A stretch of DNA of 64,000 bases, taken from the UHGV virus genome UHGV-0311442; one strand, given 5' to 3'. Shown here piece after piece: positions 7,185-51,112 of the stretch (position 1 is its first letter; each line of letters begins with the position of its first letter). The position numbers and the translations under genes were made by a program. The notes beneath the pieces were generated by a model, which did not search any database, was not told the DNA's origin, and saw nothing but the letters and a program-made list of their open reading frames with translations. The stretch comes from a virus.

Positions 7185-7191
7185 ATTTAAA

Positions 7192-8657: not shown

Positions 8658-8679
8658 AACTCTGTTCCTTTAGGGAATG

Positions 8680-8717
8680 AAAATAAAAGTACCCCTTACT
8701 CCGTATAGGGTAAGGGG
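8680..8717 (-). terminator. rho-independent terminator
   Basis: hairpin CCCCTTAC...GTAAGGGG with T-run on minus strand. Confidence 0.45.
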
Positions 8718-8723
8718 TAGAGG

Positions 8724-9928: not shown

Positions 9929-10028
9929 TTTGTTTCTCCAGTTGGATTTATACATTTCCGTATTCCGTAAGACGAAATGACGGCGCGGACAGCTAATACT
10001 CCTTTGTTGTGTGCCCTAATGATAATAT

Positions 10029-10526: not shown

Positions 10527-10613
10527 AACGAAACGCCCGGAGTTGATGTGTAGTATTAAAACGTGTACCGCCGATTGATAACTCGACAAGTATAGCGATA
10601 TATGTTTTACCCA

Positions 10614-11250: not shown

Positions 11251-11694
11251 TTAGAATGTTTTGCTAAAATCGACCCACTCACGATCGTGCGAGTAAACCG
11301 CCTGATAGCCGCGTCGGATGAAATACTCTTTTGCTTCTTTACATTTCGCATACATGCCAGTAACAATCTCGCCGAAAACTTCATCAGCTGCAATTGCTTT
11401 GAAAATCTCTTTCATTACACCCCGTTGACGGTAGTCTGGGAGCACGTATACTGAACGTATCTTAAGTGAACCGTTACGATTCCGATAACTACAGTATCCT
11501 ACCGCGACGTCATCCTGATACACCAGAACTATGCAGTTACCTTCGATCAGTTGCCGAGCTTTTAATTTCGGTACCGACGTTTTGATTTTCAGTAACGTGG
11601 CCTGGTGGTCTAAGTAACGGTAGTGCAGTTTGAGTAAATCGGCAGCTTGTCGCTCACCGACTTTAGAAGATGCGTTCAACAAATAAATTTCCAT
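11251..11694 (-). CDS. GNAT family N-acetyltransferase
   Basis: acetyl-CoA binding motif YRQRGVMKEIFKAI (R/Q-x-x-G-x-G/A pattern); start re-set to ATG at 11694. Confidence 0.6.
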   Translation of the reverse strand: MEIYLLNASSKVGERQAADLLKLHYRYLDHQATLLKIKTSVPKLKARQLIEGNCIVLVYQDDVAVGYCSYRNRNGSLKIRSVYVLPDYRQRGVMKEIFKAIAADEVFGEIVTGMYAKCKEAKEYFIRRGYQAVYSHDREWVDFSKTF

Positions 11695-11725
11695 TTGCAA
11701 ACCTTAGAGACGCAAAAAAGTAAAA

Positions 11726-11854
11726 TTAAAACCAACGCGCGATGACGAAAGCCGCAGCGGCTAATATGGCTGTGGTGATTATTAACCCACCCCATGAAAG
11801 TTCCGCGTCGTATAGTGCGGATATCGCTACATTCGTAGCGTTTATCGTGGTCAT
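11726..11854 (-). CDS. possible small membrane protein (42 aa)
   Basis: unlisted small ORF MTTINATNVAISALYDAELSWGGLIITTAILAAAAFVIARWF with GGAG RBS. Confidence 0.25.
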   Translation of the reverse strand: MTTINATNVAISALYDAELSWGGLIITTAILAAAAFVIARWF

Positions 11855-12020
11855 TTTCTGCTCCTATCAATACCCTCACACCGGAGGGTATCTTCTGGAT
11901 TATTTGGGTGGTTAATCTTCGAACGCCCAACGGTGTCGTTTAATCAGCCAGTTTAAACCTTTACCAATTAACCACAACGAGCCAAGTGTTAACAGAACCC
12001 CTACAACCATATTCCCTCTC

Positions 12021-12200
12021 CTAATTCCGCCATTCGCATTCGCGTTGACGCCAAATTGAACCCCACGATAGTTTAATCAGATAAGATGAAACTACCCATA
12101 AAATCATCACCACACAAAACATGACATAAAGAACCGCTAGAATGGACATGAAGCCAAACCCTGCCGCATCCACAATACGACGGAACCAATCAGTTTGCAT
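12021..12200 (-). CDS. possible small membrane protein (59 aa)
   Basis: hydrophobic core FGFMSILAVLYVMFCVVMILWVV; AAGGAG upstream; overlaps 3' end of ATPase gene. Confidence 0.35.
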   Translation of the reverse strand: MQTDWFRRIVDAAGFGFMSILAVLYVMFCVVMILWVVSSYLIKLSWGSIWRQRECEWRN

Positions 12201-14694
12201 AAACAATTTTTACTCCTTCGTTATACACCGCAGGCAATGTCACCCCTTCCGGTTCGATGACACAGTACGATGCTTCATTAAGTTTAGAATGAACCTCGGC
12301 TTCGTGGGAGACTACCAACAGTTGTGAAAATTCTCCTGAGTTTGCTAACGTTTTAATAAAGCCGACCAGGTTGTTACGGTGCTCCTCATCCATGCCCTCC
12401 GAAGGTTCATCCAAAAGCAACGGAAACTGATGCAACTTCAGCGCTTTGTACGCAGTCAGTCTGAACATCAGATTAAATATCGCACGCTGCGCCTTTGACC
12501 CTTTACGCACGTCAGGAACAGGCTCAGGATGCGTTTTTAGCTGGACAGGAAAAGTATAATCCAAATCGCCGTCAGTGAGATCACAAGGCATAACACGCAT
12601 GGGGTACGTCCAGACCTGTTCGATATAACGCGTCATTAACTCTGTGATTCTAACGATAGCGTTGTAAAAATACTTTCTAAGTACACCCTTTTCTGGCGAG
12701 AAGGCTTGAATCATCAGTTTGTTATTGAACTGCTGGGCTTGTAAGTCAGCAAGTTCGCGTTCCAAACTGTTGAGCTGGTTCAATTCATTTTCCATCTGAC
12801 GATAACGTTCGCGTGCGGTTGTAAAAGCATCCAGCTTCCCTTCTCGTGTACGTAAGAGTTCCTCGACGACCGTATTTGTCAACGTAACCTTAACGTCACT
12901 CTCTAACCGTTCGAATAACGCACTGAAATCATCTACAGCACGTTTAACATTCACTAGATAGGTAAGTGTCGTGTTAGCCAGTTCGTGCTCTCTACGACGC
13001 ATTGAGAGCATCTCTGTGGCTTTACCTAATCGCGACTGTTGGAAGGCGATCTTTTGTTGTAAAGCACCATCGACGTTACCAACGGCCGCTACGGCATCCT
13101 GCCATTCTTTTTCCGCCTTCACTAACCGTTGTCTGGTTTCATGGTACTCAATAGCAGAGTACAACTCACCGTCAAACGCTGCGCATAGACTCCCGAACTG
13201 CTCGCGAGACTCTGTGAAAACGTTACGTTCTTGCAAACGCTTAAAGAACATACTCAAAACAGGGTCCTTTGAATACGTCAGTACAATCTCACGAACCTGC
13301 CGCATATAAGTTACATCAGATTCTAATTCAACACGATCGCGTAATAAGGTCTCTAACTGCGTTTGCAGTTCCGTGCGCTGCTGTTGCTGTCCACGAATCG
13401 AAGACTCAAGTTCAGGCAAAGAACGCGTAACGCCTGGTCGAAACTTAAACCGACACTGCGGACAATCCACTTCCGCTGTTTCTAAGTAGTGGTTACGTTC
13501 GTGATTTAAATTCTGTAAAACGTTCTCCACTCGCTGGAGTCTATCCCGCAACCCGGCGGTTTTTTGATCCATCACCAGAAGCCGTTCTTCCAAAACATTG
13601 AGTTTTTCGGTCGAATGAATTGCGTCCAGCGTTGTTCCTAACCGTTGTCCCCAAACACGCGCGTCGGTAGCCGCACGAAGTTGGTCTAAATTGACGTTAT
13701 CGTTAAATAGACCCGGAAAGAGATGTTCAGTGTCCCATTTGGTAAGTAACTCACGTAAACGTGCCAGCGTATTCTTGAGACCTTCGTGATTCCGCATCAG
13801 GTAGTCCTGTCGTGTCGACTCATCCATCAATAACGACAAGTCTTTATTCAACATCGATACCTCTGTTTCAGTAGACACGACAGCTTCGCGGGCGGTCGCC
13901 TCGTTTTGTCGTGCGACCTGTATCTGTTCATCAGTAGGCAGACCACCACGATGTTGTAATATTGCGTCGATGGTTGGACCCAAGCTGTTTAATGACGCTT
14001 GGATTGTTTCGATGGTGACGCCGCGATTTAATCCTGGCAACTGTTCGATTTCTCGGTTCAGTTCACGTAAATCCGATTCCAAACCTTTTAATCTCGTCGC
14101 TAACTGCTGCCGTTCTTCCTCGTTCTCAATAACACGCGTCCGTAATTCGGCGATCTTACGGCTGGTGATTTCAATACCCCCATTTAAGGCAGTAAGGTTT
14201 TTACGTAAACGTTGATAAAACCCTAACGCGTAAGTGAGGTCAGAGGTGCTTAAACGGTAAAACCACTTGCGACGTAATTCGGTTCCCGCATCGGTTAACA
14301 AGACCTCACCATTTAATAGTTCTTTAATTTCTTTCGTAATACCCGTGATTTCTTCAACACGGGAGTTGTAGACTTTCGCATTACCTTGCTCGACGATCTT
14401 TGCCCCCGTGGTCAGGTTCTCAATATCACAAACCAAAGAGTTGCCTTTACGGGCAACTTTGAATCGATAGCGTTGATCGCCGACTAAACAGTAATTCGTG
14501 TAAGAACCGCCGTCCCTGAATTCAGTTTTAGCTGGTGCTAAGGGTAAGAACACAGACAGTAGACTGGTTTTCCCGCAGCCGTTCCCACCCAGGATAATTG
14601 TTGTTGGAGACTGGATAGTGAAATCGAAGGTTTCAATTTCATGTAACCCCATCCCCGTAAAACCTTTGAGTATAATGCGTTCAACTTTTAGCAT
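12190..14694 (-). CDS. Rad50/SbcC-like SMC-family ATPase with zinc hook
   Basis: Walker A ILGGNGCGKTSLL; long coiled-coil middle; CPQC hook motif mid-protein; Walker B/D-loop LLLDEPSEGMD; H-loop VSHE; start re-set to ATG at 14694 with GGAGGTG RBS. Confidence 0.7.
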   Translation of the reverse strand: MLKVERIILKGFTGMGLHEIETFDFTIQSPTTIILGGNGCGKTSLLSVFLPLAPAKTEFRDGGSYTNYCLVGDQRYRFKVARKGNSLVCDIENLTTGAKIVEQGNAKVYNSRVEEITGITKEIKELLNGEVLLTDAGTELRRKWFYRLSTSDLTYALGFYQRLRKNLTALNGGIEITSRKIAELRTRVIENEEERQQLATRLKGLESDLRELNREIEQLPGLNRGVTIETIQASLNSLGPTIDAILQHRGGLPTDEQIQVARQNEATAREAVVSTETEVSMLNKDLSLLMDESTRQDYLMRNHEGLKNTLARLRELLTKWDTEHLFPGLFNDNVNLDQLRAATDARVWGQRLGTTLDAIHSTEKLNVLEERLLVMDQKTAGLRDRLQRVENVLQNLNHERNHYLETAEVDCPQCRFKFRPGVTRSLPELESSIRGQQQQRTELQTQLETLLRDRVELESDVTYMRQVREIVLTYSKDPVLSMFFKRLQERNVFTESREQFGSLCAAFDGELYSAIEYHETRQRLVKAEKEWQDAVAAVGNVDGALQQKIAFQQSRLGKATEMLSMRRREHELANTTLTYLVNVKRAVDDFSALFERLESDVKVTLTNTVVEELLRTREGKLDAFTTARERYRQMENELNQLNSLERELADLQAQQFNNKLMIQAFSPEKGVLRKYFYNAIVRITELMTRYIEQVWTYPMRVMPCDLTDGDLDYTFPVQLKTHPEPVPDVRKGSKAQRAIFNLMFRLTAYKALKLHQFPLLLDEPSEGMDEEHRNNLVGFIKTLANSGEFSQLLVVSHEAEVHSKLNEASYCVIEPEGVTLPAVYNEGVKIVYAN

Positions 14695-15980: not shown

Positions 15981-16370
15981 TCAATGATCTAATTCAATAG
16001 CACCAGCCATCTTGCCCCGTTCTTCGATAACAATCAGATAACGGTCGCGAGATTTGCTTTTAGCGAGAGTTAAGACAACAGTAGGGTCGCATGTTTTCGT
16101 GGTGATAGGAAGAACCTCTCTTTCGACGGAATCGAGCAGAAAGTAATAACCTGCGGGACACATTGTGCCACCGTCAGCTTTTACCAGAATATAGCGCCCG
16201 TCTGCGCCGACTTCTTGGCAGATTGTTTCACCGACTTCGCAAACTTCAAACCCCGGAGGATTGTACTGATAATCGGTATTGTTGTTTGGGGTTAGCAGTA
16301 AATCGTTAACTTGAGTAGATGCTGCTACACTCAGGGAGAAGAAGAATGCTAAAACGCAGACGAGACGCAT
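15981..16370 (-). CDS. secreted protein 1 of 5 (signal peptide)
   Basis: MRLVCVLAFFFSLSVAAS; AAGGAG RBS. Confidence 0.55.
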   Translation of the reverse strand: MRLVCVLAFFFSLSVAASTQVNDLLLTPNNNTDYQYNPPGFEVCEVGETICQEVGADGRYILVKADGGTMCPAGYYFLLDSVEREVLPITTKTCDPTVVLTLAKSKSRDRYLIVIEERGKMAGAIELDH

Positions 16371-16380
16371 GAGTTACTCC

Positions 16381-16791
16381 TTAAATTTTAAGTTTATCCA
16401 TAGCTACAACGATAGGTTTTTCCGAAGTGTCTAATATCCCTACCATTGGCACACCATCTACGACTTCGAAGAATGGTTTGTTATTACCAGAGCATAGACG
16501 TTTGTCGTTGTATTCGAGACGTTGGGCCTTCCACGTTTCGAGGTTGAGTACAGACATTGGGCTGTCGTAGCACCAGGCACCACCTTGCTCAACGATGAAT
16601 ACGTATCTGCTACCTTTGTATTTAAACAGACTCTTCGCCTGACAGTACAACCCGTCAATTTCCGTACAATAGAAATCATCGGTGCTATTGACGTATTTAA
16701 TATTGTCTGGCAACTGAATCGTCTTTGCTGTAGCGTTGACAGAGAACAGAACAGCCATTGCAATGAGAAGAGTGTTGATGATAGTTTTCAT
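16381..16791 (-). CDS. secreted protein 2 of 5 (signal peptide)
   Basis: MKTIINTLLIAMAVLFSVNATA; AAGGA RBS. Confidence 0.55.
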   Translation of the reverse strand: MKTIINTLLIAMAVLFSVNATAKTIQLPDNIKYVNSTDDFYCTEIDGLYCQAKSLFKYKGSRYVFIVEQGGAWCYDSPMSVLNLETWKAQRLEYNDKRLCSGNNKPFFEVVDGVPMVGILDTSEKPIVVAMDKLKI

Positions 16792-16802
16792 GATAAAAGT
16801 CC

Positions 16803-17288
16803 TTAGTATTTAGATTGTTCTACGTATTTCTTAACCAGGTAAGCGAATTCAGCAACACCGATATCACCGAACCAAATCAGGTAACCGGGGTCGATGTTGT
16901 AGTAATAGCCGACGAGTTTCTTGGTGTGTGGGTTGTATAGCGTTACGATGTATTCCCAACCACAAGCGTTAGCTTTACAACCGCCGCTTTCAATCCAGAT
17001 TTTGTTGTTGATATTTACCGGATACATGTTACCGCCAGGGCCATCCATGTAACCTTTAGAGCCGAACATACCATCCAGTCCCACAGGGTCTAGTGTTTTA
17101 TCAACAACGGCTTTAAACGACTTATCGGTATCGTACAAGTCGTTGATGTTTGGGCACGCATTTGGCTGACCTTCCCAAGCGTTTCCATCGCAGGTAAGCA
17201 ATTCGTCTACGGAGGCCGCATCTACAGTTGGCGTGGCACCGATAAACAAGAAAACCAGAAAGAACATCAGTGTATGTAAACGTTTCAT
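16803..17288 (-). CDS. secreted Cys-containing protein 3 of 5 (signal peptide)
   Basis: MKRLHTLMFFLVFLFIGATPTVDAAS; AAGGAG RBS; several Cys in mature part. Confidence 0.55.
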   Translation of the reverse strand: MKRLHTLMFFLVFLFIGATPTVDAASVDELLTCDGNAWEGQPNACPNINDLYDTDKSFKAVVDKTLDPVGLDGMFGSKGYMDGPGGNMYPVNINNKIWIESGGCKANACGWEYIVTLYNPHTKKLVGYYYNIDPGYLIWFGDIGVAEFAYLVKKYVEQSKY

Positions 17289-17306
17289 TGTAACTACTCC
17301 TTTAGA

Positions 17307-17693
17307 TTATTCGGCAGGACGATTTAAGGTAACGCGTCCGATTAATTCGGCGTTGTGAAAGAAGTCCACAGCGGTATAATTACCAACGGATAATGGGTGA
17401 ATACTAACTGACATTACTTTCGGTTGTTCGCAAGCAATATCGGTTAGACGTTGGTAGACTTGCGCACGGGTGTCAGCAATGAGTAACCCCGTACACGCTT
17501 CACCACGCACTAAACGATAAACTTGCAGTTTACCGAAACTGCGCATTAACGTAGGCGTCTCATCCGGGTTGATAATCGGTGAGTCAGGAGCCGGTTCGTA
17601 ATAGCGGACATCCGAATCACCGAAAGCATAAGTGCCAGTAATTCCGACCGCACAGAAAATAATGATAGTATAAAGTATAGTTCTGATATTCAT
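17307..17693 (-). CDS. secreted protein 4 of 5 (signal peptide)
   Basis: MNIRTILYTIIIFCAVGITGTYAFG; start ambiguous (GTG 17699 or ATG 17693). Confidence 0.5.
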   Translation of the reverse strand: MNIRTILYTIIIFCAVGITGTYAFGDSDVRYYEPAPDSPIINPDETPTLMRSFGKLQVYRLVRGEACTGLLIADTRAQVYQRLTDIACEQPKVMSVSIHPLSVGNYTAVDFFHNAELIGRVTLNRPAE

Positions 17694-17721
17694 TTTCACG
17701 CACTCTAAAAAAGATTAATAG

Positions 17722-18183
17722 TTATTTGTTAGGACGGGTGTGCCCACAGTTTTGGAAGAAAGTTTCAGATAAACGATCGCCTTCTACGGTAAAGTTAGCG
17801 GCATCGTTACCATTGATACTCACACTGAAAGTTTTGGCATTACCGATAGCATTAACGAAAGCAACCCAAGCGTGTTCTGCCTTGTCACTACCGTCCACGG
17901 TAGGGATGTTATAGGTTTTGCCGTTTACGACAATATCCATCGTGTTATCTTCAGCGTTAGTTGCACCTACGGGTTCCCCGTAATACCAAACCATGCGACC
18001 GTAAAATTTGCGATTCGCAGTTTCAGTGTCACAGTTGATAGACAGTCCGTTTCCGGCGGTGTCTTCAATTTCGTAAACTGCCTGGCCAGGGTTTTGTATT
18101 TGTTCCCAGCTGTTGATAGCGGCGTGTGCAGTATTGAAACCGATTACGAAAAGGGCGATTAAAAAGGAAGTGAAGATTTTCAT
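17722..18183 (-). CDS. secreted protein 5 of 5 (signal peptide)
   Basis: MKIFTSFLIALFVIGFNTAHA; AAAGGAG RBS; first gene after promoter-like motif. Confidence 0.55.
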   Translation of the reverse strand: MKIFTSFLIALFVIGFNTAHAAINSWEQIQNPGQAVYEIEDTAGNGLSINCDTETANRKFYGRMVWYYGEPVGATNAEDNTMDIVVNGKTYNIPTVDGSDKAEHAWVAFVNAIGNAKTFSVSINGNDAANFTVEGDRLSETFFQNCGHTRPNK

Positions 18184-42506: not shown

Positions 42507-43430
42507 ATGACAACCAATGCAGAACCAAGGTTATCGAATCGTTTATACGATAAACCCACCGTATTGTCCGTAGTCGCTACGTCCAAGTGTAACCTGGATT
42601 GTAGCTTCTGCGGTGGAGCCTATTACATGAATCGTGAAGATTCTCCGCGAGAGTTTCAACGTGAGCGAATTTTGGAAGCGCTGGAAGCTAATCCAACCAT
42701 TACCGAAATTCAGTGGACGGGTGGTGAGCCATTACTGGCAACCCGTAAAATTGAGGCGTTTGTTGACGAATTAAAAGTGATTCGTCCAGAACTCAAACAC
42801 CAGTTGTATACCAATGGCTTAAAGATGCGTAAATCGCATCTCCCGTTGCTAAAACAGTTTGACAATGTCTACGTTAGCATCGATGGGTTTAAGTCGTCTG
42901 AGCGCCCGTTTATGCGCTTTATTGACGAAGGCTGTTACGAAGCACTGGAAACGATCTACGAGCTGGATAATGTCCAGACTTGGGGTGTCCTGACACGGGA
43001 CCGTTTAGGGGACAAACGCTGGCACGAAGATATTATTCAGCTGCACAGCGCGATTTACCATTACGGTTTCCGTGCAATGACGTTACTCTTAGATGCGAAA
43101 ATGCCAAAACCTTTATCGCCTGACCACGTCATGAACTTTATTTACGGCTACTATCAGGTTCAGGACAACATTGAACGTCTGAATGTAGTAAATGGACGTG
43201 AATGTGGCTTTACGGTAAGTAAAGTGTTTGAAGAAGGGTGTAACGTTTGCAGCGAAAGTCTTTGGATTAATGCAGACGGTGGTGAGCACCAACTCCAGAA
43301 TGCACCTAACGTTCTGGAATCGGGATGTAACCAACTGGCCTTCTCTATCGGTGTAGAGGCGTACGAATATATTCGTCGCGTAGTGATGGCAGGACGTAAT
43401 AGAGGGGCGGCAAATGAGCCAAGCAAATGA
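42507..43430 (+). CDS. radical SAM enzyme (307 aa)
   Basis: CNLDCSFCGG (CxxxCxxC) and GGEPLL SAM-binding motif; extra C-terminal Cys (CNVCSE...GCNQ). Confidence 0.7.
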   Translation: MTTNAEPRLSNRLYDKPTVLSVVATSKCNLDCSFCGGAYYMNREDSPREFQRERILEALEANPTITEIQWTGGEPLLATRKIEAFVDELKVIRPELKHQLYTNGLKMRKSHLPLLKQFDNVYVSIDGFKSSERPFMRFIDEGCYEALETIYELDNVQTWGVLTRDRLGDKRWHEDIIQLHSAIYHYGFRAMTLLLDAKMPKPLSPDHVMNFIYGYYQVQDNIERLNVVNGRECGFTVSKVFEEGCNVCSESLWINADGGEHQLQNAPNVLESGCNQLAFSIGVEAYEYIRRVVMAGRNRGAANEPSK

Positions 43431-44736
43431 ATTCCCTAAGCAGTTAACGTATCAGATCGTAACCAACCTTTCGTGTAACCTGGACTGCGAATATTGTTAC
43501 GAACGTAAGTACCCGCGTAACAACAAAGCGGCCGACATTGTTGATTTCTTACACGCCTGTTTTGAACGTGATAAAAACGAACCGAATGTTGAAGTTATTA
43601 TCGACATTATCGGCGGTGAACCGTTCATGCAGCCTAAGTTGCTGCTGGCAGCGTTTGAAACCGCAGAGCAGTTGTGTAAAGAACACAACCGTCCGTTTAT
43701 GTTTAGTATCTCCACGAACGGGACCTTGTTAGATCGTCCGTTGAACCGTGAGATTGTAGAACGTTGGAAAGACAAACTTTCGGTTGGGGTTTCGATTGAT
43801 GGCTTGCCTGAGTCCCATGACCGTTATCGTATCTTCACAACAACGCGCCAGGGTTCTTACGAAGCCGCAGTACGTGGCTATAATTACTTAAAAGAGGTTG
43901 GCATTGCAGAACTCGGCGTAAAAGCGACCTTTACGTTAGAAACACTGCCGTTCTATGCTGCAGGGATGAAGTCATTAATTGACATTACTGGCGGTGGGAC
44001 AATTTCTGGGAACGTAACCTTCGAAGACGTTATGCCACGTAGCATGGCGACGTCAATCGCTTTACAGATGATGGATGTGATAGATTATTGGGTTGAGAAA
44101 GGATTACACACCAACCCACGTAATATCTTATCGCACATCATTCCAGAAGGGTTGGATTTCGATACGATTTGGGAACCGAACTGGCGTGACCAGTTACTGT
44201 ATAATGACACCGTACGGTTGAACCCAGAACGTTTACGTCCGTTCTGTGGGACGTTAACGCACATGACGTGCTTAGGATTTGACCGTAAGATCTTTGGCTG
44301 TAACCGCTTTATGTCAACGGTAACGTCGCGTTCTGCGGTGTTTGAGTTGGTAGGTCGGGAATTCGTCAGTCTGGACAACGGTAAATTGTTAGAAGAGATT
44401 CAAACGCAATATACCAACTACCCAGAGACCTGTTTAGGTTGTCCGATGAAACACGCTTGTGGTAGCTGTGCGGCGGCTTCTTACGAGAACGGGGAAGGAA
44501 CGTTAGAAGACCGTAAAGCGTATCACGCTGAACGTCGTCAGTGTGGCTGGACGACAGCGAAACTGATGGTGGCGGAATACTGGAAACAGAAGATGGGTAC
44601 GACGTCAGCAAAAGCGTTCCACGACACGAGCATGTGTTATTGCCCACGCTGTGTTCGTGAACGTGCCCAAAAGGAAAAATTATTAAGAGAAGCCAAAGAT
44701 GAAACCAATTCTGATCAACAATATTACGAAGCGTAG
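43414..44736 (+). CDS. radical SAM enzyme with SPASM-like C-terminal domain (440 aa)
   Basis: CNLDCEYCYE and GGEPF motifs; C-terminal CLGCPMKHACGSC cluster typical of SPASM/twitch auxiliary Fe-S domains; 17-nt overlap with upstream gene. Confidence 0.7.
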   Translation: MSQANEFPKQLTYQIVTNLSCNLDCEYCYERKYPRNNKAADIVDFLHACFERDKNEPNVEVIIDIIGGEPFMQPKLLLAAFETAEQLCKEHNRPFMFSISTNGTLLDRPLNREIVERWKDKLSVGVSIDGLPESHDRYRIFTTTRQGSYEAAVRGYNYLKEVGIAELGVKATFTLETLPFYAAGMKSLIDITGGGTISGNVTFEDVMPRSMATSIALQMMDVIDYWVEKGLHTNPRNILSHIIPEGLDFDTIWEPNWRDQLLYNDTVRLNPERLRPFCGTLTHMTCLGFDRKIFGCNRFMSTVTSRSAVFELVGREFVSLDNGKLLEEIQTQYTNYPETCLGCPMKHACGSCAAASYENGEGTLEDRKAYHAERRQCGWTTAKLMVAEYWKQKMGTTSAKAFHDTSMCYCPRCVRERAQKEKLLREAKDETNSDQQYYEA

Positions 44737-45271
44737 AATTCGACTTCTGGATAAGTTTCTGGAAAACAGTAAGCTATTCGGTTGTTATGTGGTGATTAAC
44801 GGTGAAGATTTTACCGATGACGTAAAACGCTTACTGATTCGTCACGGTGTGACTGTAATCATCCCAATGTACTGCACCGAACTTACTGACCTGTCGGTCG
44901 CGGAAATTGAAAAACGTAACCCAGGGTTTGAAGAACGGGTATTGGATTTCCCACGTCACAAAATTGCGTTTCTACGCCGCTCTTTAAGCGAACCCAGCGC
45001 AGAATCTATCACTGTGTTGGCATTGTCCTTCCCCGGCATTACTATCTTCGCAACACGTAACCCGAACTCACCGATTGATGGGTTTTACGATGAGCGAGAG
45101 AAATTTAATACCGTGATTTTTCCTGAGCTAACGCCAGAAGAATGCCAGGGTATCCGTATCGATTGGGAATCGGACTTCGACACAAGATTCCGTCATATCG
45201 ATTTTGAACTGTTAATCGAATTAGGGTTGATTAAAGGAGACGATGAATGTCTGCTACTGGTGAAGGCTTAA
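44699..45271 (+). CDS. hypothetical protein (190 aa), cassette accessory
   Basis: ORF track; overlaps preceding gene by 38 nt. Confidence 0.45.
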   Translation: MKPILINNITKRRIRLLDKFLENSKLFGCYVVINGEDFTDDVKRLLIRHGVTVIIPMYCTELTDLSVAEIEKRNPGFEERVLDFPRHKIAFLRRSLSEPSAESITVLALSFPGITIFATRNPNSPIDGFYDEREKFNTVIFPELTPEECQGIRIDWESDFDTRFRHIDFELLIELGLIKGDDECLLLVKA

Positions 45272-45918
45272 CGAAAGAAGAAATCCGTCGCCGTTATTTT
45301 GCGCACGATTTACCGATTGACCGTCATGGTAACTACATGGAGAAAATCGGTAGTGAAGATCACGGCCGTACAGGGTTTTGTGCGTTACTGCACTATAAGT
45401 TGATTGATGGGATGTCTGATCGCGAAGCATTGGAACAAATGCGTAACTACGACATGTCTGAAATCGAAGCACGGTTTACGCTACAGAAAGCGAAAGACTT
45501 TGTTAACGACACGTTGGGGATTGACCTGGAAGAAATTCGTGCAGGTTTACGTTCCACGGTGCGGTACATCTTTACCGATGTTCAGAAAATTCTAAGCGCT
45601 CTGGAATTCCGTTATCAGGATGCGCGCTATGCTGAGATTCAGGTAGGTGATTTCACTTTCCAGGCAGATGAGAAGTCACAGGTAGCACTGAGTCGTTATA
45701 TCCAGTCAGAAACTGCGCCAGCGTATTGGTTAACGGCTAACAACACCCGTATCGAACCGTTTACGTTAGAACAGTGCAAGACGTTGCTGGCAGCAATCGT
45801 TGAGCGCGATCAAAGACTACACCACGCAATGTCTGAGCAGAAAAGAGAAGTCAGAGCTTGGGCTGAAGCACGTGATTACGATTCAATTAAAGCGTTTGCG
45901 TTAGAGCAAGGGCTGTAA
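45247..45918 (+). CDS. hypothetical protein (223 aa), cassette accessory
   Basis: GGAG RBS; last gene before bidirectional terminator. Confidence 0.5.
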   Translation: MSATGEGLTKEEIRRRYFAHDLPIDRHGNYMEKIGSEDHGRTGFCALLHYKLIDGMSDREALEQMRNYDMSEIEARFTLQKAKDFVNDTLGIDLEEIRAGLRSTVRYIFTDVQKILSALEFRYQDARYAEIQVGDFTFQADEKSQVALSRYIQSETAPAYWLTANNTRIEPFTLEQCKTLLAAIVERDQRLHHAMSEQKREVRAWAEARDYDSIKAFALEQGL

Positions 45919-45982: not shown

Positions 45983-46513
45983 TTAGGACGTAAAACCGTC
46001 CAGCTCACCGTTGGTGGTGGCCAGGTCAATACGATTATCAACAACTTTCGGCGTAATTACGAAAGTTGCCATTACACCTGGTTTATAACGGAGGTTCTTT
46101 TCAGTAACGGTGCACGTTACCGTACGCAGAGTGACGTTTTCATGTTCGTCTTTCTGGTCTTCGGTGTTGTACACAACGTCGCCTGGTGCGATAGCATCGT
46201 TCGGTTTAACTTTATTGATGTAATATTGTAACCAAGCGCGCAGTTCATTTTCTTGAACCCAGCGAGACAGATCGTCAGTTAGTTCAATACGGCCTACAAC
46301 ACCCGGTTCCAGACGATCGTAATGCAGTTCGATTGCACCTTTGAAATTCTCAGAACCTGGTAGTGCAGTCATGGTAACTTTGGTATTCTTACCTTCGCCT
46401 TCCAGCGCAGTAGGGAGACCAAAGGACACTTCTTTATCAGTTACCTGATGTGGTAGCTCAGTGTTAGCAGCATTATAAAGCGCGACCAACATCATCTGGT
46501 TAGTAGCGGCCAT
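45983..46513 (-). CDS. five-member paralog family protein (176 aa)
   Basis: shares N-terminal pattern and ENFKG...HYxRL core with 46579..47109; similar to 49774, 50264, 61107. Confidence 0.55.
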   Translation of the reverse strand: MAATNQMMLVALYNAANTELPHQVTDKEVSFGLPTALEGEGKNTKVTMTALPGSENFKGAIELHYDRLEPGVVGRIELTDDLSRWVQENELRAWLQYYINKVKPNDAIAPGDVVYNTEDQKDEHENVTLRTVTCTVTEKNLRYKPGVMATFVITPKVVDNRIDLATTNGELDGFTS

Positions 46514-46561
46514 TATCTTAAATCCTCAATAGTACGAGTTAAAGAAATATCGGGGAGGTTA

Positions 46562-46571
46562 CCCCCCCCCC
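46562..46571. repeat. C10/G10 homopolymer tract in intergenic hairpin
   Basis: ten consecutive C on plus strand. Confidence 0.8.
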
Positions 46572-46578
46572 GATTTAA

Positions 46579-47109
46579 TTATTCTTTAGGAGACGGTGCG
46601 GTGAAGCCATCCAGTTCACCTTCCAAACCGCTCAGTGCTACTTTCTCAGGAGCCGGAGGAGTAACTTTATACGTCGCGACAGTACCAGGCAGGAACTTCA
46701 AGTGGCCAGCCACAACCGTTACCACGTAAATGGTTTTGCCTTCTTCTTCACGAGAAATAGTTTGCAGGTCGTTTTCACCGAACTCGTCATCGGTGTACCC
46801 TTTCTCAGCCATGGCTGCGTTAACTTTCGCCAGGATCTTCGTTGGTGAATCGAAATCGGTAGTAGGTGCAGTTACTTCAACTTCACCAACGATGTCGCAG
46901 GAAAGACGAGTATAGTGGAATTCTTTCTCGCCTTTGAAGTTCTGGCTTTCTGCCTTGGCGGTCAGAGTAATTTTAGTGTTGCGGCCAGCTTCTCCGGTGA
47001 ACTCAGCGACAGCACTAAAATTAACATCATTTACAGTCAACTTAGAAGCAGTTTGGTTGTTTTTAGCAATTACAATCTCGATAAGCTGCTGTTGAAAAGT
47101 TTTAGCCAT
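46579..47109 (-). CDS. five-member paralog family protein (176 aa)
   Basis: TKITLTAKAESQNFKGEKEFHYTRL aligns with TKVTMTALPGSENFKGAIELHYDRL in neighbour. Confidence 0.55.
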   Translation of the reverse strand: MAKTFQQQLIEIVIAKNNQTASKLTVNDVNFSAVAEFTGEAGRNTKITLTAKAESQNFKGEKEFHYTRLSCDIVGEVEVTAPTTDFDSPTKILAKVNAAMAEKGYTDDEFGENDLQTISREEEGKTIYVVTVVAGHLKFLPGTVATYKVTPPAPEKVALSGLEGELDGFTAPSPKE

Positions 47110-47248: not shown

Positions 47249-47728
47249 ATGCTAAAACGTTTTCTACTTGTTGTAACTGCAGCACTTTCGTTGGCAAGCT
47301 GTGCCCTACAACCCACCGCTAACGGTCAATTCTCGACTGTACCCGTAGAGCCACACGACATGGTTATTTACACCTGTATGGGTGTTGAGCAAGATTTTGC
47401 AAATTACAAACCTGTCGTCAGTTCGACTAACCTAATGTTAGGTTCAGTAACTGTAGTCGATACTGGTGCTAACTGGGTAGCCACTTGGCCAAACGGTAAG
47501 ATTGAATCACCACAACTTTATAAAGATCTATTAGGTAAAGTTAATGGGAATATCGATCCTATCACGGGACAACGTTACTACCGTGTAAATGGACTACTTT
47601 CAAAAACGCCAACATTTGCGTATTCTACTTTAGAATATAAAACGGGCGATGGTAAAGGCATTACTTTCTTCCACTGTAAGGAAGGTGTAGCTCCTGACAG
47701 TGGAACAATGCTCCATCCTGCGGAATAA
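47249..47728 (+). CDS. lipoprotein (159 aa)
   Basis: signal peptide with lipobox LASC (MLKRFLLVVTAALSLASC); own terminator; opposite strand to neighbours. Confidence 0.6.
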   Translation: MLKRFLLVVTAALSLASCALQPTANGQFSTVPVEPHDMVIYTCMGVEQDFANYKPVVSSTNLMLGSVTVVDTGANWVATWPNGKIESPQLYKDLLGKVNGNIDPITGQRYYRVNGLLSKTPTFAYSTLEYKTGDGKGITFFHCKEGVAPDSGTMLHPAE

Positions 47729-47735: not shown

Positions 47736-47773
47736 TACCCTACTCCCGATAAGGAGTAGGGTATATTGATTTT
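47736..47773 (+). terminator. rho-independent terminator
   Basis: hairpin TACCCTACTCC-cgataa-GGAGTAGGGTA followed by TATTGATTTT. Confidence 0.6.
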
Positions 47774-47846: not shown

Positions 47847-48362
47847 TTAAATCTCGACTAAAGCGCTCCAATCGATTGGTTTTTGCTTAACCACTTTCAC
47901 AGTACCACGATTTGGTGACCAGAAAGTAATGTTAGGTTGATTACGAACGTCGATGTGTAACCAGCTGATGTCACATTCAATAAAGTGAATGAACGGAAAC
48001 TCATCAGGGTTAGCAGCGATATAGTCGTGAACCTGTTTTACGGTGCTATCCAACAACGTTGCATCAATTGCGTTACCGAATTTGTGTTGACTTCCTGAAT
48101 CGGCGTAAAGCTGTAACGCACGTTGTTTATAACTACCGCCCTTAGGCTTTTCTTGATTAATAAAGAAATCTAAAGTTCTTAGTCCGCGTTGTTGCGCAGC
48201 GGTTGAGTTAATCACCATTCTACCGAAACGGTTACGAATCTGTTGCAGTGAAATCATTAGCAACGGGTTCATAAACCGGATTGCAGAATCGCCGTATTTG
48301 GCAATATAAGACTGTGGTACTAACTCTCTGAGTTTAAAATTACTCGGATTTGGATGAAACAT
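47847..48362 (-). CDS. peptidase M15-family cell-wall peptidase
   Basis: SGSQHKFGNAIDA and WLHIDVR motifs (zinc ligands of M15 D,D-/L,D-peptidases); GGGAGGGAAG RBS. Confidence 0.6.
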   Translation of the reverse strand: MFHPNPSNFKLRELVPQSYIAKYGDSAIRFMNPLLMISLQQIRNRFGRMVINSTAAQQRGLRTLDFFINQEKPKGGSYKQRALQLYADSGSQHKFGNAIDATLLDSTVKQVHDYIAANPDEFPFIHFIECDISWLHIDVRNQPNITFWSPNRGTVKVVKQKPIDWSALVEI

Positions 48363-49005
48363 CTTCCCTCCCAGACAGAAAAGCGCGTTTGATGTTCAGG
48401 TATTTGACATTAACGGGCTGATCTGTGGTGATATCAATACGTTCGTGGTCAGGGATTGCAGGTTCCTTAAACTCGCGAACGAATAAATAGTTTCGATTAT
48501 AATCTAACGTACGAAACGCGTTAGTGTTGTAGGATGGCTTTGCATTAGGATCTACGTAGGAATCCCAGCCGAATTCAACGACGGCCTTATAAAATGTTTG
48601 GCAGATATAAGGTGAGATTTCCAACGACTGCATAATACGCAGGAACGTTAAATCAGAGAACTCTTTATCGATAATACGCGAAACGTTACCACCCGGTGTC
48701 ATGGGATAGCTACGCTCCGTGTTACATTTTTGATAGAGTAGGTCGTGAATGCAGGCCGCAGGTGCCCACGGTCCGTCAGGATGGAAAATTCCCTGGAGGT
48801 GTTCAGGAATTGACGCTAAATCGGTAACGAACCCTTTCGGTGCTGTTAACCACAGTTGCGTGTCAGGCAATACACCCGTTAAATAAACCGCACGGTCTAA
48901 GTGTACGTGGTCGTGATAAATCTCACGTAACGTAAACGGATAATGGTAATCCTCCGTTAATACAAACCACTTATTGTCTAAACGTTTATATTGAAACTTC
49001 TCCAT
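48340..49005 (-). CDS. DUF1353-like protein
   Basis: TDLASIPEHLQGIFHPDGPWAPAACIHDLLY resembles the DUF1353 D-x-AS-x-P...HD pattern; start re-set to ATG 49005. Confidence 0.4.
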   Translation of the reverse strand: MEKFQYKRLDNKWFVLTEDYHYPFTLREIYHDHVHLDRAVYLTGVLPDTQLWLTAPKGFVTDLASIPEHLQGIFHPDGPWAPAACIHDLLYQKCNTERSYPMTPGGNVSRIIDKEFSDLTFLRIMQSLEISPYICQTFYKAVVEFGWDSYVDPNAKPSYNTNAFRTLDYNRNYLFVREFKEPAIPDHERIDITTDQPVNVKYLNIKRAFLSGREDVSSKSE

Positions 49006-49121
49006 TACCCACACCTTCCCTTATAGAAACCAGAAAAATTCGCATCCACGCTTTTCGTCTTTACGTTTTCGTCCAGACGTTAACGCTTTCCACAATAGTG
49101 CTAAGAGTTTAGCAAACCAGT

Positions 49122-49712
49122 TCATTTTACTAACCCCGCCTTCACTACATAATCCGGCATTTCCCTGAACACACGTGCGTACCAGCCGTAAGCGAATTTT
49201 TCATTCTTCTTACGCTTTTCGGAGATTTCTGTGTAGTAGGTTACCTGGTGTGAGATTAACGCAAAGATTAAGATGCCTAACCCCTCGTCTTTACGGTAAT
49301 TCAGATAAGCATTCAGGGCACCTAGCGTTTTAGGTCCCATACCGCCGTCGGTGTCAATATCTGCGTAAAGTTTCCCTTCGTTATTTAAAACGTTCAGAAT
49401 ACGTTGTAACGATTTCACACAGTTAACGCGGCCAGAGTTAATAGCAAAATCAAACATCCGGTCTGCGAGTAAGGGTGAAATAGCTAAAATCTCATCGAGT
49501 TTAAGTTTCTTCCACCAACCGCGATCGTAAATATCAAACGCCTGCGCACGGGTCAGATCCTTCATTTTTCCTTTATACCCGTATTCGCGTGCAGTTGTTA
49601 GTGTTACACCGTGACAGGTTTCCCCACCTTTATCGTCAGGGTCGTTTACGTACCCGCCTTCTAAATCTGTTTTCGAAGCAATAATACCTTCTTTAGTCCA
49701 ACGTTCGGCCAT
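49122..49712 (-). CDS. GH108-type muramidase with peptidoglycan-binding domain (endolysin candidate)
   Basis: N-terminal DLEGGYVNDPDDKGGETCHGVT (EGGY catalytic motif of GH108) plus C-terminal PG-binding-like region; GAGGAG RBS. Confidence 0.7.
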   Translation of the reverse strand: MAERWTKEGIIASKTDLEGGYVNDPDDKGGETCHGVTLTTAREYGYKGKMKDLTRAQAFDIYDRGWWKKLKLDEILAISPLLADRMFDFAINSGRVNCVKSLQRILNVLNNEGKLYADIDTDGGMGPKTLGALNAYLNYRKDEGLGILIFALISHQVTYYTEISEKRKKNEKFAYGWYARVFREMPDYVVKAGLVK

Positions 49713-49734: not shown

Positions 49735-49769
49735 CAAAAAAAGAAAAGAGGGTGGGATTACCCCACCCT
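49735..49769 (-). terminator. rho-independent terminator
   Basis: hairpin AGGGTGGG-atta-CCCACCCT with T-run on minus strand. Confidence 0.55.
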
Positions 49770-49773: not shown

Positions 49774-50250
49774 TTATTTCTTCTTAGCGCGTGATGGCTT
49801 AGCTGGCGGTGTTTCAACAGTCGGTTTACGCGCAACGCGCACTGTAAAACCACCGACCCAGGTTAGGCACTCAGGACGGAAGAAAATGCCGTGCTCGATT
49901 GCACTGCCGCCCAGCGGTAACTCACCAACCTGCTCTACCCATACGTCGTCTTCAGTAAGGGTTAAGCCATACTGTTCGTTAATTACAGGCAACAGGTCCG
50001 CAGTCGTGGTGGCTGTTTCAACTAACAGTTTCGGCAATACGTTGAGGAAATACAAACCGGCATCGATGCGGTTATACTGGAACGTTTGCTTATTAGCATA
50101 ACCGAGATTCTTAACCGCCACAACCGTAATTTCGGTATTGTACGCACCGGTACTTACGACGGGCTCACCCAATGTAACTTTGGCGGTGTCGAACTCAGCG
50201 TCTGGGTTAGCCTTTTTAATAAGGTCGAAGATAGTTTCTTGACTGGTCAT
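49774..50250 (-). CDS. five-member paralog family protein (158 aa)
   Basis: N-terminal pattern and DLLPVINEQYGLTLTEDDV shared with 50264 and 61107. Confidence 0.55.
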   Translation of the reverse strand: MTSQETIFDLIKKANPDAEFDTAKVTLGEPVVSTGAYNTEITVVAVKNLGYANKQTFQYNRIDAGLYFLNVLPKLLVETATTTADLLPVINEQYGLTLTEDDVWVEQVGELPLGGSAIEHGIFFRPECLTWVGGFTVRVARKPTVETPPAKPSRAKKK

Positions 50251-50263
50251 TACTGTAATCCTC

Positions 50264-51112
50264 TTAATCTAAGAATCCCGGTAAGACCGAATTAGTTTTA
50301 GCTAATTCAATCTTCGACTTCGGACGATCGGTACCGTTAAAGTGGATTAACAGATTACCGGTCAGGTTAGCACACAGTCCACTGAGTGCGAGTACCAGCA
50401 CACGTGTGTACTTTGTGTTTGCGCCTTCGTAACCTGCGGTAGGCCCATCGTAGATAACCTTAGCACCGTAGAGGTTATTAGCAGCGTTCTTAGGTACGCT
50501 TACCCATATCTCATCAACGACGTTAGTCAGTTTAGTGGCTAACTCAGCCAGGTCGACGGTGTCGTTAATGGTAATCGGATCAAGGTAATCTTTTTCTGCT
50601 GTGAAATCAATTGGATAAGAATAAACCGCAGCGTTACCTTTCTTAGTGGACGGATACTCTACCAGGTTTTCTAATTGAGTAACAGGTAACAGTTTAGCCA
50701 GATCAATAGGATCGCGTAGCGTAAGTGTTACTTCGCCACACCACTCGTAGGATTTCTCGTTAGCGGTAAGCTGATGGGTTTCACCTTCAACTTTCGCATC
50801 AACGATATCCGACGGCAGAATATTTAAATCGTATTTTGCATTGATTGCATTAAGCAAATCTGCAGCGGTTACAACACCGTCGTTACCAAACACCAACTCA
50901 CCTGTTAGGTATTCGGGCAAATTACGACGATGGTAAGTCACAGTTAAAGTAGTAGACTCATCGCCTTTGAGTTTAGAAGTCAGAACCACCTGGGTATCAA
51001 CCCCAGTACCAGTAGGTTCGCCGATATCAACATCACTGAAGGTCAATGGCGGAACAATATTGTTTTCAGTGTTGATGAGTTTTAGCAGTTTCTGTTTTGA
51101 CGTAAGAGACAT
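50264..51112 (-). CDS. five-member paralog family protein, extended (282 aa)
   Basis: N-terminal KLINTENN...TFSDVDIG...LTVTYHRR and DLLNAINAKYDL. Confidence 0.55.
   Translation of the reverse strand: MSLTSKQKLLKLINTENNIVPPLTFSDVDIGEPTGTGVDTQVVLTSKLKGDESTTLTVTYHRRNLPEYLTGELVFGNDGVVTAADLLNAINAKYDLNILPSDIVDAKVEGETHQLTANEKSYEWCGEVTLTLRDPIDLAKLLPVTQLENLVEYPSTKKGNAAVYSYPIDFTAEKDYLDPITINDTVDLAELATKLTNVVDEIWVSVPKNAANNLYGAKVIYDGPTAGYEGANTKYTRVLVLALSGLCANLTGNLLIHFNGTDRPKSKIELAKTNSVLPGFLD

Follow-up and report, generated by a model that had tools for sequence, protein, structure and literature searches.

A predicted envelope-lysis operon of an SPN3US-like jumbo phage combines two peptidoglycan hydrolases, a TtaP-family phospholipase-like protein and a small cationic peptide

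Results

Four genes form one operon in an SPN3US-like jumbo phage

We analyzed a 64-kb stretch of DNA (the window) from an SPN3US-like jumbo phage of the giant Salmonella type. On its minus strand, we find an operon that joins a GH108 muramidase, a small cationic peptide, a DUF1353 protein and a predicted M15 zinc peptidase. We consider it probable, if far from secure, that this region is the late envelope-lysis operon of the phage and that its lipid hydrolase helps to disrupt a membrane. Solid in this reading are the domain assignments with their intact catalytic residues, the structure and conservation of the operon, and a gene order that is found again in other viruses. The features of the operon are as follows.

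49122-49712, minus strand: muramidase with GH108 and PG_binding_3 domains, 196 aa, homologue of SPN3US gp156
49021-49125, minus strand: gene of a cationic amphipathic peptide of 34 aa, MNWFAKLLALLWKALTSGRKRKDEKRGCEFFWFL, read from the sequence
48340-49014, minus strand: DUF1353 protein, predicted TtaP-family PLA2-like, homologue of SPN3US gp157
47847-48362, minus strand: predicted M15/LAS-fold zinc peptidase, Peptidase_M15_3-like, homologue of SPN3US gp158
49749-49769, no strand assigned: hairpin rich in G+C with a T-run after it, separating the muramidase gene from the DUF7941 gene upstream
47736-47763, no strand assigned: hairpin that is terminator-like in both directions, separating the end of the M15 gene from that of a convergent lipoprotein gene

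The initial annotation had described three adjacent minus-strand genes, and we find their ORFs exactly where it placed them, overlapping or nearly abutting. It had missed the conserved peptide gene between the muramidase and the DUF1353 gene. The muramidase stop and the peptide start overlap as ATGA, the DUF1353 and M15 genes share a 23 nt overlap, and hairpins stand at both ends; thus, the four genes make up one transcription unit. In a scan for terminator-like sites, which returned 15 such sites in 45-52 kb against 6.7 ± 2.5 expected, the hairpin at 49749-49769 (9 pairs, 6 of them G-C) is the upstream boundary of the operon, and the hairpin at 47736-47763 (12 pairs on the minus strand and 11 on the plus strand, with a T-run after each) is the downstream boundary. 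A sigma-70 promoter scan showed no enrichment (11 sites, 12 expected) and is uninformative here, since SPN3US-like phages use their own RNA polymerases. Virion structural genes surround the operon, the upstream ones on the same strand, and the four genes are probably expressed late.

Searching the region against GenBank phages by megablast, we obtained a sole match of 454 bp with 76% identity. As the DNA match was so limited, protein-level searches were needed. These revealed that the adjacency of the three annotated genes is not due to chance, because Seoulvirus and related jumbo phages keep the block in synteny. Across the genera, the one member that the block always retains is DUF1353, which lies nearly always beside a peptidoglycan hydrolase. 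This partner is GH108 in Erskine-, Machina- and Wellingtonvirus, M15 in Derbicusvirus, and both enzymes in Seoulvirus and the window; the Vibrio phage pVa-21 is the exception to the pairing.

The muramidase is of the TtsA type

Pfam searches bore out the GH108, PG_binding_3 and DUF1353 assignments, every match lying above its cut-off. The muramidase matched Glyco_hydro_108 (PF05838) at 8.7e-24 (84.3 bits, cut-off 21.2), and its C-terminal domain matched PG_binding_3 at 1.7e-16 (60.6 bits, cut-off 24.6). Residues 17-21 read LEGGY, of which residues 18-21 (catalytic E18) form the EGGY motif, a conserved catalytic element of GH108/TtsA-type muramidases (PMC13284979). The protein is 61% identical to SPN3US gp156 and 48% identical (E=5e-55) to a TtsA-like protein of the typhoid-toxin islet. 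It also matches the endolysin family phrog_315 (2e-43), and its GH108 relatives are the annotated endolysins of N4 and many other phages. A Kyte-Doolittle scan of the protein detected no signal peptide, TM or hydrophobic segment. Judged from its sequence, the product of 49122-49712 is a soluble GH108 N-acetylmuramidase of the TtsA / N4 gp61 type.

The DUF1353 protein has the catalytic residues of TtaP

The DUF1353 protein matched its Pfam family (PF07087) at 6.9e-15 (54.9 bits, cut-off 22.5). The ORF codes for 224 aa from a GTG and for 221 aa from an ATG at 49005, which is likely the true start; the protein has no signal peptide. Its best fold match is a fungal PLA2, and its helical core resembles the group XIII/XIV secreted PLA2s. 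The founding member of the family, TtaP, was shown in 2024 to have PLA2 activity, which is lost with D85A (PMC11525133). The core of the window protein is 37% identical to TtaP, and about 55 extra N-terminal and about 70 extra C-terminal residues surround this PLA2 core when compared with TtaP. H90, D91 and D121 (224-aa numbering) are invariant in 27 homologues and align with H70, D71 and D85 of a 125-aa TtaP-like protein. Across 31 divergent members of the family, the H and the D next in order are invariant, and the distal D is conserved in at least 90%.

The window protein thus reads as a TtaP-family PLA2-like enzyme whose predicted catalytic residues are intact, so the module would target lipids as well as the cell wall. 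The earlier DUF1353-like call is confirmed by Pfam, but the treatment of this protein as an inert neighbor does not hold, since the family is that of the TtaP PLA2. Hydrolysis of phospholipids at the sn-2 position has been shown only for TtaP of S. Typhi, where ttaP deletion left toxin secretion and envelope integrity unchanged (PMC11525133). A membrane-breaching role is therefore only putative even for TtaP.

The M15 protein has a LAS fold and a zinc-site motif

The M15 protein itself gave no Pfam match at E<=1. Among 26 of its relatives, however, 17 matched Peptidase_M15_3 (best 6.8e-08) and 12 matched M15_4. R62, H93, D100, H136 and D138 are invariant; they correspond to the H-x6-D zinc ligands, the distal H and a conserved Arg. 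The fold is that of LAS / hedgehog-N proteins, and a weak alignment was obtained with the VanX motif region. The protein is 78% identical to SPN3US gp158, and in small Vibrio podophages (J2, QH, K227 and others) a member of its family is annotated as the endolysin. Motifs, fold and homologues thus favor the M15-family call of the initial annotation, while the Pfam search of the protein itself did not. We predict from these features that the product of 47847-48362 is an M15/LAS zinc peptidase.

The LAS fold and the H...D...H zinc site are common to this protein, the M15 phage endolysins (the L-Ala-D-Glu peptidases of T5 and RB49, Ply500 and LysB4) and the Streptomyces Zn DD-peptidase 1LBU. In contrast to those endolysins, the window protein is too dissimilar for a Pfam match, and its best fold match is a DD-carboxypeptidase of M15A, not an M15C endolysin, with LD-carboxypeptidases next.

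A coupled cationic peptide is conserved

By its substitution pattern, the peptide gene is under purifying selection: 11-13 nt differences in related contigs lead to just 1-3 amino-acid changes (binomial probability about 1e-4). Homologous peptides with the same ATGA overlap are encoded in SPN3US, where the gene is unannotated, and in phiEaH2 (gp076), so that the small peptide is kept in three genera. The peptides carry a net charge of +5 to +7 and have a hydrophobic moment of 0.45-0.61; the peptide is amphipathic and stays below the Kyte-Doolittle threshold for a TM segment. The typhoid-toxin islet locus, searched likewise on the downstream side of ttsA, showed no coupled small ORF.

The operon region has no multi-TM ORF, and a holin candidate lies about 39 kb away

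We agree with the initial annotation that no multi-TM holin lies nearby. Scanning all ORFs of 25 aa or more in 45-53 kb for Kyte-Doolittle hydropathy, we found no multi-TM ORF; the only hydrophobic segments were the signal peptide of the lipoprotein (47249-47728, plus strand) and those of spurious antisense ORFs. Holins are small proteins of the lysis cluster with at least one, usually two to three, TM helices, and no such protein is encoded within the operon or in 45-53 kb. In a complete Seoulvirus genome annotated with PHROGs, no gene at all is named as a holin or spanin. Two features had been overlooked.

47249-47728, plus strand: predicted outer-membrane lipoprotein, 159 aa, convergent on the operon, homologue of SPN3US gp159
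8178-8657: protein with two TM segments, holin candidate, conserved in position, beside a signal-peptide SLT transglycosylase

The SLT, a third peptidoglycan hydrolase, and the 2-TM protein occupy 8.2-10 kb, about 39 kb from the operon. The SLT is annotated as 'putative endolysin' and is kept in all these related phages with the 2-TM protein close by. If a holin is used, the 2-TM protein is plausibly the best candidate, and this putative second lysis cluster could be the real lysis cassette.

The lipoprotein has the lipobox LASC with Ala at residue +2 and two more conserved Cys residues. All 7 homologues compared, from 4 genera, keep the lipobox unchanged, and two different scans returned this gene as the only lipobox ORF in the window; a looser rule was used, as the strict lipobox pattern misses known cases. 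The protein matches phrog_9559 at 3.2e-64 (PHROG category: function unknown), has no Pfam match and gave only chance-level matches in a PDB profile search. It is linked to the module by position only. We rejected the lipoprotein as an o-spanin or u-spanin: it is 159 aa long and convergent, has no i-spanin-like neighbor and lacks a C-terminal TM helix. Neither an i-/o-spanin pair nor a u-spanin was found at the operon or at the lipoprotein gene. Elsewhere in the window, five signal-peptide ORFs at 16-18 kb showed no detectable mutual similarity in a paralogy test.

DUF1353 follows small membrane proteins in other viruses

We surveyed the context of 33 non-redundant viral DUF1353 loci, using crude longest-ORF gene calling and Kyte-Doolittle alone for TM calls. 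In 13 of 31 cases, the gene directly upstream of DUF1353 encodes a lipoprotein or a small TM protein, a class that accounts for 33 of 246 distant genes (Fisher p=3e-4). At least five unrelated viral contigs carry an endolysin, a small membrane protein and DUF1353 in this order, and their endolysins are of four different types; two of five such loci have a 1-TM gene directly downstream, and a sixth DUF1353 locus has an Rz-like spanin directly upstream. In other phages DUF1353 takes the distal, spanin-like position of holin-endolysin-spanin-type cassettes. Phage_holin_4_1 matched two unidentified proteins among the neighbors within two genes on either side.

The neighbors were otherwise varied, including tail-fibre, DUF4376, HNH nuclease and helicase genes, and we rejected the proposal that DUF1353 always resides in lysis cassettes. 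A lysozyme was near one of the first four metagenomic contexts, and the other three were uninformative. In the 33 loci, recognized peptidoglycan hydrolases occur about six times within two genes of DUF1353 and about eight times within four, and a recognizable lysis gene lies at most two genes away in only about a quarter of the loci. Clearly above expectation are only the small membrane protein directly upstream and the endolysin-membrane protein-DUF1353 order.

Discussion

In the lysis reading, the four products would accumulate late in infection. The muramidase would cut the glycan strands of peptidoglycan and the M15/LAS peptidase would cut the stem peptides, both hydrolases degrading the wall at the same time. 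The 34-residue peptide would be a translationally coupled cationic amphipathic product. The cytoplasmic DUF1353 enzyme, which if active would need some form of latency, would hydrolyze membrane phospholipids into lysophospholipids and free fatty acids. The peptide, the phospholipase or both may thereby compromise a membrane. The likeliest target would be the outer membrane, attacked after entry of the enzymes into the periplasm; its disruption is normally the work of spanins. The inner membrane would be the alternative. The match of a muramidase and a phospholipase to TtsA and TtaP suggests a mode of envelope breakage that may work without a holin or spanin of the classical kind.

We weighed this reading against three others. 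The initial annotation had offered two options, a multi-enzyme lysis system or a single lysis enzyme together with a virion-associated entry enzyme, and the former is the better supported. For entry, the M15 protein and/or the phospholipase would be carried in the virion and would give the tail a local passage through the wall or outer membrane, leaving GH108 as the sole endolysin. The module is indeed embedded among structural genes, some DUF1353 genes of other phages adjoin tail-fibre, baseplate or DUF4376 genes, and 2-3 spectra of SPN3US gp158 were obtained from tailed particles, against 0 from tailless ones (PMC5105663). These trace spectra lend thin support, however, as gp158 was later absent from wild-type virions and was judged a probable non-specific contaminant (PMC5694885), and gp156 (GH108) and gp157 (DUF1353) are missing from the virion proteomics tables. 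The SPN3US homologues are not robust virion components. Moreover, the M15 gene is translationally linked to these non-virion partners, and its family serves the small Vibrio podophages as annotated sole endolysin. An entry role seems rather improbable to us. That DUF1353 is instead a non-enzymatic tail assembly chaperone, placed between two lysins incidentally, follows its PHROG and RefSeq label and its recurrence near DUF4376, a 'tail fibre assembly'-like protein. We found no experiment behind this label, which traces to context-based annotation. The invariance of the catalytic residues across a very divergent family, the PLA2 fold, the measured activity of the founding member and the adjacency to peptidoglycan hydrolases, which persists across genera despite changing hydrolase type, make this explanation scarcely credible.

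A non-lytic device for envelope remodeling or secretion, similar to type 10 systems, deserves closer comparison. Such a device might serve superinfection exclusion or the membrane anchoring of assembly, with a carboxypeptidase-like M15 enzyme perhaps editing the stem peptides on which a TtsA-like muramidase would act, the PLA2 modifying the envelope locally, and lysis left to the SLT/2-TM cluster. The TtsA-TtaP pair of the typhoid-toxin islet, from a non-lytic secretion system of type 10 in which no holin or spanin has been identified (PMC13284979), is homologous to the muramidase and to the DUF1353 protein, the latter of which shares the H/D/D residues of TtaP; in both loci, the two genes are adjacent and neither protein has a signal peptide. 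The carboxypeptidase fold matches of the M15 protein and the SLT with its 2-TM neighbor, kept in all these phages, point the same way. In the islet, however, ttsA and ttaP are convergent and beside toxin subunit genes, whereas the window genes are co-directional, share one operon with the peptide and M15 genes, and belong to a virulent jumbo phage. A TtsA-family muramidase linked to a cargo or toxin defines type 10 secretion; the operon has no secreted cargo gene, and its neighbors encode virion proteins. In addition, GH108 enzymes serve many phages as genuine endolysins, the endolysin-membrane protein-DUF1353 order occurs in ordinary lysis-cassette contexts of unrelated phages, and phage lysis cassettes are considered the source from which type 10 systems arose (PMC13284979). 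We think it quite unlikely that the operon is such a non-lytic device.

The lysis reading can be taken further, to a holin- and spanin-independent enzymatic demolition of the envelope, in which the PLA2 and the peptide, perhaps with the lipoprotein, would breach the membranes and free the two endolysins, the phage module being the evolutionary source of TtsA-TtaP. We hold this extended version unlikely. If true, TtaP-type phospholipases would be the missing membrane-crossing or outer-membrane-release factor of typhoid-toxin secretion, and a third class of outer-membrane disruptor would exist for part of the roughly 15% of phages without spanins. If the DUF1353 phospholipase is a lysis effector, the widespread 'tail assembly chaperone' misannotation would be corrected, and a lipid-hydrolyzing step analogous to mycobacteriophage LysB would be added to the lysis of Gram-negative hosts. 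An antibacterial toolkit of a small disulfide-free PLA2, a peptide and two lysins would follow. The defined gene set makes testable how SPN3US/phiKZ-type jumbo phages lyse their hosts, how spanin-less phages breach the outer membrane, and how TtsA reaches the periplasm and the toxin exits across the outer membrane, both of which are open according to the literature.

As with the lambda S-R-Rz/Rz1 genes, envelope-degrading functions are clustered in one unit, here probably late, and the soluble endolysin has to get across the inner membrane. Unlike lambda, the operon has no TM holin or spanin, and has instead two peptidoglycan hydrolases, the 34-aa peptide and a predicted lipid hydrolase. Enzymatic attack on the outer membrane during lysis has its clearest precedent in the LysA/LysB pair of mycobacteriophages, a peptidoglycan hydrolase and a lipid-ester hydrolase that attacks the outer lipid layer. 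LysB is a cutinase-like esterase of the alpha/beta-hydrolase type acting on mycolyl-arabinogalactan, whereas DUF1353 is a helical protein of the His/Asp PLA2 type, found in phages that infect Gram-negative hosts, and has no homology to LysB. In bacteriocin release, colicin lysis lipoproteins act via the outer-membrane phospholipase A, and lysophospholipids permeabilize the Gram-negative envelope. Colicin release and the window both pair a phospholipase with a small envelope protein, the window having the predicted PLA2, the adjacent lipoprotein and the peptide. The colicin phospholipase differs in being the host beta-barrel OMPLA and not a phage-encoded soluble enzyme, and there is no homology. 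The peptide itself can be likened, by properties and not by sequence, to the 'disruptin' gp28 of phiKT, a small cationic amphipathic outer-membrane disruptor of a spanin-less lysis cassette (bioRxiv 10.1101/515445). The two are alike in size class, charge and amphipathicity, while the window peptide is shorter, is coupled to a GH108 enzyme and has a predicted PLA2 alongside.

The muramidase, DUF1353 and M15 genes look like one transcription unit

The window is part of the genome of a jumbo phage, a relative of Salmonella phage SPN3US (genus Seoulvirus). Compared at the DNA level with GenBank phages, all that matches is 454 bp. The gene block recurs in near-identical IMG/VR contigs (221-225 kb). 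The initial annotation described three adjoining minus-strand ORFs, encoding a GH108-type muramidase with a PG-binding-like region, a DUF1353-like protein and an M15-family peptidase. We find all three exactly where it had placed them. Domain searches, named beforehand as the way to refute the GH108 and M15 assignments, do not refute them, and both stand: the muramidase scores lie far over the Pfam cut-offs, and the M15 protein, itself without a Pfam match, is assigned by motifs, fold and homologues. The Pfam match of the DUF1353 protein bears out that assignment too.

Features of the operon and its borders
49749-49769: terminator-like hairpin just upstream of the muramidase gene
49122-49712, minus: muramidase; Glyco_hydro_108 (8.7e-24), PG_binding_3 (1.7e-16), EGGY motif
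49021-49125, minus: small-peptide ORF of 34 codons, between the muramidase and DUF1353 genes
48340-49014, minus: DUF1353 protein (Pfam 6.9e-15)
47847-48362, minus: M15 peptidase, 171 aa, 78% identical to SPN3US gp158
47736-47763: bidirectional terminator-like hairpin just downstream of the M15 gene
47249-47728, convergent with the operon onto the 47736-47763 terminator: predicted lipoprotein gene, the only one in the whole window

The peptide ATG and the muramidase stop codon share an ATGA overlap, and the DUF1353 and M15 genes overlap by 23 nt. Because of these overlaps, the flanking hairpins and the absence of a hairpin of comparable strength inside the block, the four genes look like one transcription unit. 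Terminator-like hairpins are enriched around it (15 versus 6.7 ± 2.5 expected).

In related contigs, 11-13 of the 105 nucleotides of the peptide ORF differ, with only 1-3 residue changes (binomial probability ~1e-4). Homologous peptides that keep the ATGA overlap occur in SPN3US (unannotated) and phiEaH2 (gp076), and other small hydrophobic ORFs occupy the position in Machinavirus, Wellingtonvirus and the Seoulvirus SPLA3. The peptide is cationic (charge +5 to +7) and strongly amphipathic (hydrophobic moment 0.45-0.61), and hydropathy shows no TM helix in it. Between SPN3US gp156 and gp157, 288 bp recorded as 'intergenic' (NC_027402, 5058-5342) contain as many as three small ORFs that lack annotation: the NWF amphipathic peptide (33 aa), one of ~50 aa with a GFFKLLRAIF motif conserved in phiEaH2 too, and a hydrophobic one (30 aa) annotated in SPLA3 alone. 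The lipoproteins of four genera keep the lipobox, Ala or Val at +2 and two more cysteines.

The DUF1353 protein is homologous to the phospholipase TtaP

In S. Typhi, the typhoid-toxin islet encodes TtaP. This protein of 125 aa consists of a single DUF1353 domain and is a bona fide phospholipase A2 (PLA2), distantly akin to group XIV secreted PLA2s; its catalytic residues are H70, D71 and D85, and D85A abolishes activity (PMC11525133). One DUF1353 locus that we retrieved as viral (L080) is itself a typhoid-toxin islet, complete at 4050-7434 with cdtB, a ttaP-like gene (125 aa, H70/D71/D85), a ttsA-like gene, pltA and pltB. Its contig (UViG_2909186831_000003) is classed as viral by IMG/VR. In the viral collection it falls in a cluster of 23 near-identical DUF1353 loci, at least 8 of which have GH108 (TtsA-like) neighbours.

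The window DUF1353 protein matches the L080 125-aa protein (E=2e-15, 37% identity across the core), and pairwise alignment pairs its H90/D91/D121 with H70/D71/D85. All three residues are invariant among 27 homologues, and short DUF1353 members have the 15-residue His-to-Asp spacing of TtaP. The window muramidase matches the TtsA-like protein (E=5e-55, 48% identity). Since both match L080 proteins, the phage muramidase and DUF1353 protein are homologous to the TtsA-TtaP pair, the closest known system to the operon. TtsA has no signal sequence and is exported through 'a yet unidentified holin', the outer-membrane step of the toxin system is stated as unknown, and spanins are absent from Salmonella type 10 secretion systems (2026 paper, PMC13284979). 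Thus, with a homologous pair and no identified holin or spanin, the phage module and the islet are alike both in the genes they pair and in the parts that are missing.

In GenBank relatives the operon genes are already present, labelled endolysin, tail assembly chaperone and hypothetical protein/endolysin. We found no experimental support for 'tail assembly chaperone' on DUF1353, and none of the five papers in the searchable literature that mention DUF1353 connects the family with phage lysis.

DUF1353 is the constant element of the module

Composition of the module in jumbo phages
Seoulvirus and the window's clade: GH108, peptide, DUF1353, M15; lipoprotein convergent
Erskinevirus, Machinavirus, Wellingtonvirus: GH108, small ORF, DUF1353; lipoprotein near, no M15
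Derbicusvirus (CR5, Phobos): DUF1353 and M15 only
Vibrio phage pVa-21: DUF1353, no recognisable partner

DUF1353 is the one member that all of these share, and its partner is either peptidoglycan hydrolase or both. DUF1353 genes occur in at least 516 viral contigs; grouping the best 80 at 70% identity left 33 clusters. Of 31 genes lying directly upstream, 13 code for a small TM protein or lipoprotein, compared with 33 of the 246 distant genes (Fisher p=3e-4); six of the 13, judged by eye, are lipoproteins. The order endolysin, small membrane protein, DUF1353 recurs in five unrelated loci (G+C 27-63%) with four endolysin types (GH108, M15_3, M15_4 twice, phrog_435). In two of the five, a 1-TM gene directly follows DUF1353; these are plausibly the two proteins of the ±2 neighbour set that Phage_holin_4_1 matched. 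A sixth locus has an Rz-like spanin directly before DUF1353. Other contexts include tail-fibre, baseplate and DUF4376 genes, HNH nucleases and helicases, so the family also occurs outside lysis cassettes, and recognisable lysis genes show a modest overall enrichment around it.

The best holin candidate lies in a second cluster

The absence of a multi-TM holin ORF nearby, also annotated initially, stands: when all ORFs of 25 aa or longer in 45-53 kb were scanned for hydropathy, no multi-TM protein was found, and within plausible genes there the lipoprotein signal peptide alone is strongly hydrophobic. Neither a holin nor a spanin is named in the fully PHROG-annotated SPLA3, whose lysis category comprises just the GH108 and M15 'endolysins' and a 'transglycosylase'.

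Features of the second cluster
9230-9955, minus: SLT transglycosylase, a third peptidoglycan hydrolase, with a cleavable-looking N-terminal signal peptide; homologue of SPN3US gp198 'putative endolysin'
8724-9233, minus: gp199 homologue, next after the SLT gene
8178-8657, minus: 159-aa protein with two TM helices, two genes downstream of SLT, in the position of the 86-aa 2-TM gp200 of SPN3US

The 2-TM protein is the best holin candidate, ~39 kb from the operon, and 8178-9955 may be an endolysin and holin cassette.

The operon is probably used in exit

Two roles had been offered initially, a multi-enzyme lysis system or one lysis enzyme plus one virion-associated entry enzyme. The SPN3US virion tables include gp155 and gp160, and lack gp156 (muramidase) and gp157 (DUF1353). 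For the peptidase gp158, tailed particles yielded 3 and 2 spectra and tailless ones 0; it was later taken as a likely non-specific contaminant. Endolysin is the annotation of GH108 relatives in N4 and many other phages, and of the M15-like family in small Vibrio podophages. Together, these virion data and annotations make egress appear more likely than entry, in favour of multi-enzyme lysis.

We judge the operon to be, most likely, a lysis cassette that includes a phospholipase and has no holin of its own. Its four proteins, predicted to be soluble or peripheral, would build up late; the muramidase and peptidase would cut two distinct peptidoglycan bonds, and the PLA2, perhaps with the amphipathic peptide, would harm a membrane. 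Group XIV PLA2s are calcium-dependent enzymes. We favour a spanin-like role at the outer membrane, because DUF1353 holds the distal, spanin position in cassettes of other phages, the TtaP authors likewise prefer outer-membrane perturbation, and calcium dependence would leave the PLA2 latent in the cytoplasm. A more radical alternative would be holin-like action at the inner membrane. The strongest evidence against this mechanism as a whole is that ttaP deletion gave no secretion or envelope phenotype; DUF1353 contexts are also heterogeneous, and a second putative lysis cluster exists. Functional analogues include the phiKT disruptin, mycobacteriophage LysA/LysB, and colicin lysis lipoproteins working through OMPLA.

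Neighbouring genes

Four DUF7941 paralogues flank the operon (45983-47109 and 49774-51112, minus). The 176-aa DUF7941 gene is a tandem duplicate in the window, and one copy has 49-88% identity between otherwise near-identical contigs; gp160, the SPN3US homologue of the pair, is a very abundant head protein with >300 copies/capsid (PMC5694885). A DUF4376 protein (Pfam 4.8e-11) lies at 45247-45918 (plus). Genes for DUF4376 recur beside DUF1353 among unrelated phages: directly upstream of it in CR5, Phobos, Caitlin and Wellington, adjoining it in Francisella phage KIRK, and in 3 of the 33 viral clusters. Two adjoining radical SAM / 4Fe-4S proteins (42507-44736, plus) stand beside the module in all related jumbo phages examined.

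Directly upstream of the SLT gene is a Macro-domain protein (10029-10589, minus; Pfam 5.4e-06), a homologue of SPN3US gp196 labelled 'phosphatase' in SPLA3. At 11676-12206 (minus), between GNAT acetyltransferase and SMC/SbcC-like genes, lies a run of ORFs (32, 42 and 61 aa) that all contain a single, strongly hydrophobic helix; two match phrog_13448 and phrog_16515 (no assigned function). At 15981-18183 (minus), five successive genes (129-161 aa) have no Pfam matches and no detectable mutual similarity; each begins with a cleavable-looking signal peptide, and they form a cluster of predicted small secreted proteins.
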